This document shows, one piece after another, positions 5,766 to 25,831 of a stretch of DNA of 64,000 nt (the stretch's first letter is position 1; each line of letters starts with the position of its first letter). The stretch spans positions 1-64,000 of the IMG/VR virus record IMGVR_UViG_3300028591_000014; one strand, written 5' to 3'. This DNA is from a virus. Its lineage: Duplodnaviria; Caudoviricetes. The notes beneath the pieces were generated by a model that did not search any database, was not told the origin of the DNA, and saw nothing but the letters and a program-made list of their open reading frames with translations. The translations under genes were made by a program, and so were the position numbers.

Positions 5766-5839
5766 GGACTTGTAGCTCAGTTGGTTAGAGCAACAGACTC
5801 ATAATCTGGAGGTCCCAGGTTCAAGCCCTGGCTGGTCCA
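5766..5839 (+). tRNA. tRNA with CAT anticodon (Met or Ile2)
   Basis: Cloverleaf with anticodon loop CTCATAA and T-arm CCAGG-TTCAAGC-CCTGG; CCA not encoded. Confidence 0.9.
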
Positions 5840-5987
5840 CGCTATACTTTCCATAGTGTAGTAAATGGCATTTTTTTTTGTTATCACGGAGCACATTGTC
5901 TGTGAAGATAGTGTGCTTTTTAGTAGAATGTCTTTTGGGTTTAACCCTATAAATAACCGAGTTATTAACAATTAAAATCTATCAAAG

Positions 5988-7930: not shown

Positions 7931-8186
7931 AGTAAGACACTGTTATGTTGAAGACTAAAATAAGGCTTTCTGAGACGTTTTTAGAGCTTAAGTGGATCAG
8001 CTACCCACTAGAGTAAAGAAAACGCGTCAGAGAGCCTGTAAATAGCCTTAAATCGAATGTTTTGACTGATCATCACTACATTCACTACTGGATACCTATA
8101 GTCGTATATTTATTCGATGAAATGTCAAAGGTATCCATCTCTCATTGAAATCTTAGCGGTCTGAGTTAATCTGTTCGGACGGCGGT

Positions 8187-9026
8187 TGATATACGAGCCG
8201 CATTATAATTGGGTGAATTCAAGGAAGACTAAACATAATAAAGGCTCAAAGCCAACATTGTGCATGTTAACCCTGAGCCAAGCATAGAGTACACTCTATG
8301 AAGGTGCAACGACTACTGGAGGAGTATAGTCTCCTTAATTACCAGCTTGAGCGCCCAACATCTCATTTTGAGATGAAGAGATAGTCTCATCTTCACAGAA
8401 ATGTGAAGTGTAGGAAGAAATTAATTTAAGATATTGTTTAGTCTCTAAATCAGACATTGTAGATTTCATAAAGTTTATTGGGGTAGAAACAAACTGTACA
8501 TTTCCTACAACATATCCTTTTGAAGAATCTATTCTGTCTAATGATGCACGACACCATAATTGTTCACAATTTCCTTTCTTATTCCAAGTAGGAAGATACA
8601 GTTTTAAACCTGTGTATGGACAAATACCGTTTTGTTGCTCCCAAATCTGTTTGAGATCTTTAAGAGTGAGATTAAATTCTTTAAAACGCTTTTTGGCGTT
8701 TCTAAAAGAATATCTAAAAGGTGTCCACTCATCTTTATGATTCTGACAATAATTCTTAATATTTTGTTGTGCTTTTAATTGTGCTTCTGTAGGGATGTCT
8801 TTATATAAGTTACACCTATATGTAGCAGAACAAGCTCTACAACAAAAATTCTTTCTACCTAATTTAATGTTCCGATTATATTCGGAAAGAGGCTTTTGAG
8901 CTTCTTTACCACAATTATCGCAAATAAACGTTACCAAACGTCTATTCTGCATATACTTCTTTTGTTCTTCCATACATATATAACGTGGAGGCAGAAGGAA
9001 TGGTTGCGTTAAACTAGAAGATTTTG
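8187..9026 (+). mobile_element. Group I intron (840 nt) in the tmRNA T-loop
   Basis: P1 GCGGT/GCCGC with U.G at the 5' splice site; P/Q/R/S-like elements AATTCAAGGAA, AACCCTGAGCCAAG, GTGCAACGACTA, AAGAGATAGTCT; terminal G at 9026. Confidence 0.9.
8335..8973 (-). CDS. Intron-encoded His-Me finger (HNH-like) homing endonuclease, antisense to the intron
   Basis: Zn ribbon CDNCGK...FCCRAC plus CPYTG...SLDRIDSSKGYVVGNVQFV...INFMK; likely start at Met31 of the listed ORF. Confidence 0.8.
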   Translation of the reverse strand: MEEQKKYMQNRRLVTFICDNCGKEAQKPLSEYNRNIKLGRKNFCCRACSATYRCNLYKDIPTEAQLKAQQNIKNYCQNHKDEWTPFRYSFRNAKKRFKEFNLTLKDLKQIWEQQNGICPYTGLKLYLPTWNKKGNCEQLWCRASLDRIDSSKGYVVGNVQFVSTPINFMKSTMSDLETKQYLKLISSYTSHFCEDETISSSQNEMLGAQAGN

Positions 9027-9131
9027 TCGATTCCGCCCAGGTCCACTTTGACAGATACCGCAATCTGACAATTCTGCGATGGTAAACAAACGGCTATGTT
9101 CACCACGTACGCCCTCATAAGAGGGCATTTT

Positions 9132-9269
9132 GGGCCTGACTGGATTAGACGGGCAGAGGAAGTAAAGGCATTAACGCTTTGATAATAATAACTGGCAATA
9201 TTAACATTGCAGACTATACGGGCCTCAAGGAGGCAGCGTAAAGTCCGTGCAGGCTACGAAAGTGCCTAA
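9132..9269 (+). ncRNA. ssrA: Permuted tmRNA, coding piece; tag (A)GNINIADYTGLKEAA
   Basis: 5' GGGCCTGACTGGATTAGACGGG pairs with CAGGTCC including G3.U70; ATAACT-GGC resume context; tag frame 9194-9241 ends AA-TAA. Confidence 0.9.
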
Positions 9270-9329
9270 GAGTGTAGAACAATGGATCTCCTTGCGAGTG
9301 CTGGTTCGACGCCAGCCTACACTCCACCA
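9270..9329 (+). ncRNA. Miniature tRNA-like RNA ending CCACCA
   Basis: GAGTGTAG/CTACACTC stem, T-arm GCTGG-TTCGACG-CCAGC, no D-stem, only a 3-bp middle stem. Confidence 0.7.
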
Positions 9330-9431
9330 ACCAATTACATACGCATAGAACAGCTATTAGGTAATTTTTTGTTTTAGTTGGTTAGTATTAAGTTTACAGC
9401 GGTAAACAACCCCCACAGCGGTGGGGGATTC

Positions 9432-9504
9432 GCTCCCATAGCTCAATGGATAGAGCAACAGATTTCTAATCTGTGGGTTATAGGTTCGAGTCCTATTGGG
9501 AGTA
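9432..9504 (+). tRNA. tRNA-Arg(TCT)
   Basis: Canonical cloverleaf; anticodon arm ACAGA-TTTCTAA-TCTGT. Confidence 0.92.
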
Positions 9505-9522
9505 CTAAATACCTTTATCAAA

Positions 9523-19509: not shown

Positions 19510-19601
19510 GAGAGGAATACGCTACTTGGGGGTAGTGTCTAAAGGCTAACAAAGCTTTGAGGGGTGGAGTTAGTTAGGTGGTTTGAGTCCACCTCCTCTC
19601 A
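19510..19601 (+). ncRNA. Non-canonical tRNA-like element
   Basis: GAGAGGA/TCCTCTC-A acceptor, GGTGG-TTTGAGT-CCACC T-arm, two 7-bp internal stems, no standard anticodon loop. Confidence 0.55.
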
Positions 19602-24887: not shown

Positions 24888-25273
24888 TTTATTAAATATG
24901 GAACAACTACGTAAACGTTTTCCAGGTATATGGTTTAACGGAATGTGGTTAATATAATGGTCAGTGGTGGAGGACTGACTGGTTAATCTAGTCAGCCCCT
25001 AACAATTTTGTCGTTGTTTTCATAAAATGTGGTGCTGACAACCAATAAATCAGATAATCGTTCCGTGTAAGTCTAATAAACTGCGGGTACATGGAAATTG
25101 TACGAACAAGCTAGATTTTGTCTAGAAGGGGTAACGTGAAAGCTAATAAAAGGTCAGTGGTAATGGTAGCTCTCCAGACTAACGGAGTTTGTGGGCAAGG
25201 GATATGGGTGAGATTCCCATACAGCCTCGCGGGTTCGAGTCCCGCCGCCATTCAAATAGTAGAGAGAATTTCT

Positions 25274-25751: not shown

Positions 25752-25831
25752 AGATCAGTAGTCTAGAGGTTATGACGGTCACCCTAAAAGGTAGTTGACG
25801 GATTGTGGGGTTCGAATCCCCACCTGATTAC
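25752..25831 (+). tRNA. Atypical tRNA-like gene with an enlarged, CTA-containing anticodon loop
   Basis: GATCAG/CTGATT acceptor, GTC/GAC D-arm, TGGGG-TTCGAAT-CCCCA T-arm, 14-nt loop CCCTAAAAGGTAGT. Confidence 0.55.

Follow-up and report, generated by a model that had tools for sequence, protein, structure and literature searches.

A tRNA-like element conserved downstream of the permuted tmRNA gene of crAss-like phages is probably an RNA-processing signal

In this work we describe a mini tRNA-like element that directly follows a two-piece tmRNA gene in the genome of a crAss-like phage from the gut, and that recurs at the same place in related phages. Comparison of these loci suggests that the element probably serves as a punctuation signal, a tRNA-shaped mark for processing within a co-transcribed cluster of RNA genes. 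The window (the whole 64,000-nucleotide stretch analysed here) covers the initial 64 kb of a virus record that is complete, has terminal repeats and measures 102,956 bp. Among named phages, its closest relatives are cr272_1 and cr273_1, two crAss-like phages (Buhlduvirus, Suoliviridae) from pig faeces. Literature searches on crAss-like phages with tmRNA or tRNA-like structures, and on the two-piece tmRNA of phages, returned no account of the element. The features of the window are listed in Table 1.

Table 1. Coordinates of the tmRNA gene, the tRNA-like element and the tRNA genes in the window
Feature	Positions	Strand	Remarks
tRNA-Met	5766-5840		one of the window's two real tRNAs; CCA not encoded
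tmRNA acceptor piece	8148-9045	+	split in the T loop; exon 1 ~8148-8186, exon 2 9027-9045
Group I intron	8187-9026	+	840 nt; Rfam Intron_gpI, 83.6 bits
Intervening segment of the permuted tmRNA gene	9046-9131	+	between discriminator A9045 and the coding-piece 5' end at 9132
tmRNA coding piece	9132-9269	+	acceptor 5' strand 9132-9138
Tag frame	9194-9238	+	GNINIADYTGLKEAA; stop codon 9239-9241
Terminal hairpin of the coding piece	~9251-9267	+	followed by a 2-nt tail, 9268-9269
Element, acceptor-stem 5' strand	9270-9277	+	8 nt, pairs perfectly with 9317-9324
Element, linker	9278-9299	+	22 nt in place of D arm, anticodon arm and variable region; GG at 9284-9285
Element, T arm	9300-9316	+	5-bp stem 9300-9304/9312-9316; 7-nt loop 9305-9311 fitting the T-loop consensus
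Element, acceptor-stem 3' strand	9317-9324	+	abuts the T stem, so that 13 pairs (8+5) are stacked
Unpaired C after the stem	9325	+	conserved in the family; discriminator or C74
ACCA tail	9326-9329	+	specific to the window
tRNA-Arg(UCU)	9432-9505	+	next same-strand gene after the element; found by ARAGORN and Rfam; CCA not encoded

The element (9270-9324) lacks both a D stem and an anticodon loop and is composed of an 8-bp acceptor stem set on a canonical T arm. The initial annotation, made from the letters of the window, had already recognized the 8-bp acceptor-like stem, the perfect T arm and the lack of a D stem; all three were confirmed, the two helices by reading of the sequence and by folding, and the missing D stem by the linker, in which only a weak local hairpin forms. 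The 3-bp middle stem of the same annotation is not conserved in relatives and was abandoned. The minimum free energy (MFE) structure of the element is identical whether it is folded alone or within 9133-9345. Its energy stands out only modestly from that of shuffled sequences (z = -2.4; 5 of 200 shuffles do equally well) and a structural scan finds about one chance acceptor-plus-T-arm match per shuffled genome, so that the significance of the element rests on its conservation among relatives. Over 9270-9329 ARAGORN makes no call, and the Rfam tRNA family (RF00005) gives no match at E up to 10.

As in a canonical tRNA, the acceptor stem is stacked on a T arm with a consensus loop, but it has 8 bp and not 7, and the 22-nt linker holds neither a D arm nor a 7-nt anticodon loop on a 5-bp stem. 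The G3-U70 pair is absent in both possible registers, the third pair being G-C or, in the alternative register, A-U. The two acceptor strands pair together and not with the tmRNA, as tmRNA-type terminal pairing would have it; the idea that the element is a second tmRNA acceptor piece was rejected, its 3' strand not being complementary to the coding-piece 5' strand. The eighth G-C pair has the form of the extra acceptor pair of tRNA-His (G-1:C73), a resemblance only, and the element has no anticodon, hence no GUG. In the loop of the terminal hairpin that precedes the element, triplets resembling the anticodons CUA, UUA, CAA or GAA can be picked out. A permuted tRNA was nevertheless dismissed, since a hairpin on the 5' end of the acceptor stem cannot take the position of an anticodon arm. 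A pairing of this loop with the start of the acceptor piece (5 bp in relatives) was also discarded: the loop differs in the window and its partner is the same, so that covariation lends it no support.

The initial annotation placed the element directly after a tmRNA coding piece, and this proved right: the tmRNA gene is permuted and its coding piece lies just upstream, with the element beginning 2 nt past the terminal hairpin. The tmRNA acceptor stem is formed by 9132-9138 with 9038-9044, contains a G3-U70 pair and differs from that of cr273_1 by a compensatory change. When 8186 is joined to 9027, the resulting acceptor piece is identical in every base to that of two relatives that lack the intron (L093 and L094). 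Neither ARAGORN nor Rfam, the latter at gathering thresholds, detected the tmRNA of the window or the element; they miss the tmRNA because the 840-nt intron splits the acceptor piece in the T loop. At permissive thresholds the coding piece gives a weak alignment to Rfam tmRNA_permuted, scoring only 15.4 bits since the 5' strand of the T stem is lost to the intron. In intron-less relatives ARAGORN calls permuted tmRNAs with near-identical tags, and tmRNA_permuted scores 46-58 bits. The intervening segment is removed during tmRNA maturation.

The tmRNA gene (8148-9269) is both circularly permuted and interrupted by an intron, an arrangement that one other locus (L003) appears to share. In the tmRNA database (2025), standard, intron-containing and permuted forms are separate classes, and no intron above 700 bp is reported (PMC11915505). 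A 216-aa ORF (8335-8985) lies on the minus strand opposite the intron and overlaps the intron core; a Pfam search assigned it to no family. The tags of the window and its relatives all end in EAA, versus the LAA or VAA typical of bacterial degradation tags, and we may speculate that a tag with such an end might not direct proteolysis by ClpXP.

Exact-pattern scans of viral and metagenome contigs, anchored on the tag end, recovered 42 distinct versions of the tmRNA locus. Every locus with enough downstream sequence (~38 of ~38) carries a tRNA or a tRNA-like element after the coding piece, and three further contigs that end early show the start of one. The co-occurrence with permuted tmRNAs in related phages, which had been put forward as a check on the element, thus holds throughout. 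The element starts 28-41 nt past the tag stop codon, that is, 2-8 nt past the terminal hairpin, in 28 of the 33 loci that were parsed; the stop codon and the element are 58-120 nt apart in a few relatives. A single anticodon-less family of 46-85 nt, sharing the acceptor top and the unpaired C of the window, occupies the site in ~31 of the ~38 loci. A D arm is retained in its larger members, together with a closed anticodon stem whose loop has 3-5 nt; its smaller members, including that of the window, have only a 12-27-nt linker, which nearly always contains a GG, a possible mimic of G18-G19. Across relatives the linker ranges from 12 to ~60 nt and cannot be aligned, and the D and anticodon arms have been lost in differing ways; larger relatives have loops of 3-5 nt or aberrant regions of 14-22 nt instead of a normal anticodon arm. 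Genuine tRNAs are found at the very same site: five lineages have a tRNA-Gln(UUG) there and one has a tRNA-Arg(GCG)-like gene. In cr272_1 and cr273_1 the site holds a full cloverleaf in which a 4-nt loop replaces the anticodon loop (Rfam tRNA, 53.6 bits), and three loci (L038, L060 and L079) carry further variants.

Several side observations were made at these loci. The RefSeq tmRNA features of cr273_1 (NC_055904.1, 35492-35861, corresponding to L001:2808-3177) and cr272_1 (NC_055903.1) are identical to the ARAGORN calls and span most of the tRNA-like cloverleaf (L001, 3113-3181), so that the annotation hides the element. Six loci (L007, L018, L077, L081, L085 and L090) have a conserved motif within the 60-80 nt that follow the element, before the next tRNA, for which an H-type pseudoknot is possible; one of its stems shows an exchange of A-U for G-C between loci, and the motif is missing from the window. 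In five others (L008, L057, L062, L070 and L086), a conserved hairpin flanked on both sides by the 9-nt repeat AATAGTAGC lies within the 60-100 nt that follow the element, again before the next tRNA. A hairpin of the window (9410-9427) is loosely analogous, with an 8-nt word repeated at 9399-9406 and 9415-9422. Finally, L078 and L051 share a related spacer module of ~60 nt that separates the tmRNA hairpin from the element.

A covariance model built from 12 short members recovered the family with scores of 27-64 bits and found the element in 30 further sequences, which gave an alignment of 31 sequences. Over the 13 stem pairs, 96.5% of the cells form standard pairs and 10 of the 13 pairs show compensatory changes in which both sides have changed; none of 500 shuffles matches the observed covariation, and sliding the 3' partners by 1-3 columns lowers pairing to 36-53%. 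The alignment was fitted to the model, and an independent script based on exact complementarity gave the same picture. Of the acceptor pairs, the outermost is found as G-C in 29 sequences and as A-U in one, and in no sequence is it open. Hardly any change occurs in the first five pairs of this stem; free covariation is seen in its pairs 6-8, and four of the five T-stem pairs show compensatory changes with retention of the loop consensus. The alignment indicates that the element is real and conserved, that visible selection is limited to the acceptor/T minihelix, and that the interior varies freely.

These properties bear on the proposal that the element is a decaying tRNA pseudogene, a functionless remnant in a phage tRNA cluster. 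Such clusters turn over quickly, and the D and anticodon arms are indeed degenerate or lost differently from one lineage to the next. Decay would, however, be expected neither to maintain this level of pairing and of compensatory change in 31 diverged copies, nor to leave the remnant at a fixed position in every related locus, and the variation of the T stem and linker argues against very recent duplicates. We therefore regard a pseudogene as quite improbable.

The initial annotation had stressed that the element ends in an encoded CCACCA. Of the ~31 family members, only that of the window has this end, and the emphasis on it was not upheld. The tail 9325-9329 reads CACCA, and the first CC of CCACCA is made of the last C of the stem and the conserved unpaired C. 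Family members invariably have C next to the stem, then A or T about equally often, and unrelated sequence beyond; the second CCA belongs to the window alone. In a family of ~31, it is nothing unusual for a CCA to arise once by chance at a particular place, and the ACCA tail of the window (9326-9329) is probably due to chance. The annotation was correct in stating that the two real tRNAs of the window (Met and Arg) do not encode CCA, but this lack does not make the CCACCA of the element meaningful. Other readings of the 3' end were rejected as well. An encoded CCA made of the final C of the stem, the conserved C and the base that follows was discarded, because the third base is T in about half of the family; nor can an ACCA following a nine-layer stem with an A-C mismatch be retained, because the second CCA is unique to the window. 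CCACCA marks tRNAs that have a destabilized acceptor stem and a 5' GG, to which it is added after transcription. Here the motif is encoded in the genome, follows a stem of eight perfect pairs with 5' GA and is missing in all relatives, which does not fit a marked unstable tRNA. The tRNA-His of an unrelated phage (L087) shares the 3' motif by chance only, in a different register.

Conservation covers exactly what RNase P, RNase Z and the CCA-adding enzyme need as a minimal substrate, and outside it the sequence can decay; the position does not change, and some lineages have real tRNAs at the site. Together these features favour a punctuation element. The precursor would comprise, in this order, the acceptor piece, the intervening segment, the coding piece, the tRNA-like element and tRNA-Arg. 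Co-transcription is suggested by the spacing and the shared strand, and no terminator-like site is visible between the element and tRNA-Arg(UCU); the tRNA-like fold would then lie within a longer transcript and adjoin the end of another RNA. Host RNase P would recognize the acceptor/T minihelix and cut at the 5' edge of the element, at 9269/9270, or one base further in (5' of 9271). The coding piece would be left with a 3' end made of the hairpin and ~2 nt, which exonucleases could trim to the hairpin. The element would be released as an RNA of ~56 nt; RNase Z or exonucleases would probably trim it on the 3' side of C9325, and CCA would be added. Bacterial RNase P cleaves acceptor/T minihelix substrates, and it leaves 8-bp stems in tRNA-His and tRNA-Sec. 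In addition, tRNA-processing enzymes cut permuted tmRNA transcripts (PMC11915505), and in plant mitochondria 3' ends of mRNAs are set via RNase P at t-elements (PMC1920247). That RNase P creates the 3' end of the coding piece in the manner of mascRNA, as the initial annotation proposed, is on comparative grounds the best-supported reading; the cleavages, their positions and end formation as the selected function are what we infer from the comparison of the loci.

Three points count against this reading. The near-invariance of the first five acceptor pairs and of the following C, as seen in the alignment, is not explained by a pure RNase P handle. The tmRNA sits in a tRNA cluster, so that some adjacency to a tRNA is expected without any special function. 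Lastly, the spacing between stop codon and element is larger in a few relatives (58-120 nt) than in most (28-41 nt).

The first of these points is what one would expect if the released tRNA-like RNA were itself selected, as a CCA-bearing and perhaps aminoacylated molecule whose acceptor end is recognized in a sequence-specific manner, whether by a synthetase, by a transferase or by some factor of host or phage origin that the RNA titrates. Its location next to the tmRNA would then provide co-expression, and cleavage by RNase P would be a by-product. In the 31 sequences it is precisely the five first acceptor pairs and the next C that hardly change while the other pairs covary, and the 8-bp stem, with its paired first G and 3' C, resembles the G-1:C73 end of tRNA-His; minihelices with this feature can be charged. 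The larger members also keep an L-shape layout with a D arm and a closed anticodon stem. However, other lineages carry unrelated sequences at the site (tRNA-Gln, the cr273-type cloverleaf, the L038 type), which means that no single acceptor sequence is required there. Moreover, G3-U70 and an anticodon are both absent, the interior is not conserved, and no evidence identifies a partner. Selection of the released RNA seems to us doubtful. It is still less probable that the element stays uncut, as a 3'-terminal tRNA-like structure on the coding piece comparable to those of plant viruses, where it would protect the end or recruit the CCA-adding enzyme or EF-Tu. The element does abut the coding piece and folds in context as an independent 3' domain, and both the public annotation and the ARAGORN tmRNA calls in relatives extend into it. 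These ARAGORN boundaries are nevertheless algorithmic, not experimental; the normal tRNA-Gln of five lineages must be released in order to function; and a free acceptor/T minihelix behind a single-stranded 5' leader is a standard RNase P substrate, whose escape from cleavage would need a special reason.

The initial annotation had offered, as an alternative, a decoy for anticodon nucleases or tRNA-sensing defences. Phage-carried tRNAs are known to offset defences that target tRNAs, but this is a general precedent and we found nothing specific to it here. The window element has no anticodon stem-loop, and the larger members have loops of 3-5 nt or closed stems, so that anticodon nucleases would be without a target; a normal 7-nt anticodon loop exists in no member of the family. 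A decoy for such nucleases or for other tRNA-cleaving defences is barely credible, and what may survive of the idea is an RNA that binds, as decoy or ligand, factors recognizing the acceptor end. Weighing these proposals, we retain the punctuation signal as the probable function of the element.

Similar structures occur away from the tmRNA; they were identified by eye and with the structural scanner, on a single-sequence basis. An element-based search of the viral collection returned nine true members, eight of which adjoin a tmRNA. One locus has a second terminal hairpin and tRNA-like element (L040:3030-3131) ~870 nt downstream of the first, behind an ORF of ~250 aa, so that this ORF is bracketed by two tRNA-like elements. 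In another (L092), a family member lies directly after an ORF; no tmRNA is present in the 330 nt read upstream, and ARAGORN calls none on the 12.4-kb locus. The genome studied here itself contains, outside the window and on the minus strand, a 44-nt mini tRNA-like element between two ORFs (G000:C1:87271-87314, L100), with a 7-bp acceptor stem, a 13-nt linker containing GG and a consensus T arm, ~35 nt past a stop codon. Within the window, a 91-nt tRNA-like element (19510-19600) lies just before the start of polB; it has a T arm, an acceptor stem of 7 perfect pairs and an interior that departs from the canonical form. Three other observations were made in the window. The 3' trailer of the 19510-19600 element matches that of tRNA-Arg. 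A near-tRNA at 25752-25830 (Rfam tRNA, 23 bits, below threshold) has 14 nt including CTA in place of the nine central positions of the anticodon arm, and could be an amber suppressor of an atypical kind. At 25228-25252, a lone perfect T arm with an acceptor-like strand after it ends a structured intergenic region of ~300 nt.

One may go further and propose either that the family is a new class of anticodon-less phage small RNA, or that hairpin and mini-tRNA form portable cassettes used as a general end-forming device, although we hold this extension to be unlikely. Members of such a class would offer an 8-bp acceptor end with CCA and perhaps an amino acid; they may, for example, be a partner or regulator of phage trans-translation, or a ligand titrating a host factor that binds tRNA acceptor ends. 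Under the cassette proposal, crAss-like phages may form the ends of mRNAs and of non-coding RNAs alike.

How the outer ends of two-piece tmRNAs form is poorly defined, and here the coding-piece 3' end appears to be set by a dedicated tRNA-shaped signal. The family represents a natural minimization of tRNA to ~46 nt (acceptor stem, linker and T arm) under continued selection. If similar elements act beside protein genes, abundant gut phages would join organelles and eukaryotic long non-coding RNAs as settings of tRNA punctuation. There is also a practical consequence: current annotation (ARAGORN; RefSeq entries of cr272_1 and cr273_1) merges the element into the tmRNA, and it misses tmRNAs split by an intron, as in the window. 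In conclusion, the element is best described as a probable tRNA-like processing element, in a conserved phage family tied to a two-piece tmRNA. Several known systems can be compared with it, of which plant mitochondrial t-elements and mascRNA/MALAT1 come nearest.

In mascRNA/MALAT1 and MEN-beta, RNase P cuts at a tRNA-like structure, which generates the 3' end of the upstream non-coding RNA and a ~60-nt RNA that is given CCA. The arrangement proposed here is the same as that of mascRNA/MALAT1 in that the tRNA-like structure lies directly downstream of a non-coding RNA whose new end would be protected by structure. The eukaryotic systems are nuclear, however, and a triple helix protects their end, whereas the phage coding piece has a simple hairpin; and the CCACCA of MEN-beta is added after transcription on an unstable stem, whereas that of the phage is encoded, in one genome, after a stable stem. 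With canonical and armless mitochondrial tRNAs the element shares an acceptor stem stacked on a T arm with a consensus loop, and the short forms (46-60 nt) are close in size to the smallest tRNAs. It differs from a canonical tRNA by its eight acceptor pairs and by the lack of an anticodon loop and a D stem, and it cannot decode.

The t-elements of plant mitochondria resemble the phage element in being tRNA-like but non-canonical, with a T arm and an acceptor stem that are conserved, and they lie inside longer transcripts, as is proposed for the phage element (Forner et al. 2007, PMC1920247). One edge of a t-element, 5' or 3', falls on the end of an adjacent RNA; a cut by RNase P at the 5' edge creates the 3' end of the upstream RNA, followed in some cases by exonuclease trimming of a few nucleotides, and genuine tRNAs do the same job at other loci (PMC1920247), just as the phage site holds real tRNAs in some lineages. 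The t-elements are organellar, flank mRNAs and have ends that were mapped experimentally (PMC1920247); the phage element, in contrast, flanks a non-coding tmRNA piece, has an 8-bp acceptor stem and is part of a sequence family whose acceptor top is near-invariant. As to the gene upstream, it belongs to the permuted tmRNA genes, with an acceptor piece that precedes the coding piece, a G3-U70 pair and cutting by tRNA-processing enzymes (PMC11915505). The tmRNA database paper describes one intact tRNA inside an intervening segment and no tRNA-like element after a coding piece (PMC11915505). The phage tRNA-like element stands outside the tmRNA architecture described so far, next to a tmRNA gene that is at once permuted and intron-containing.
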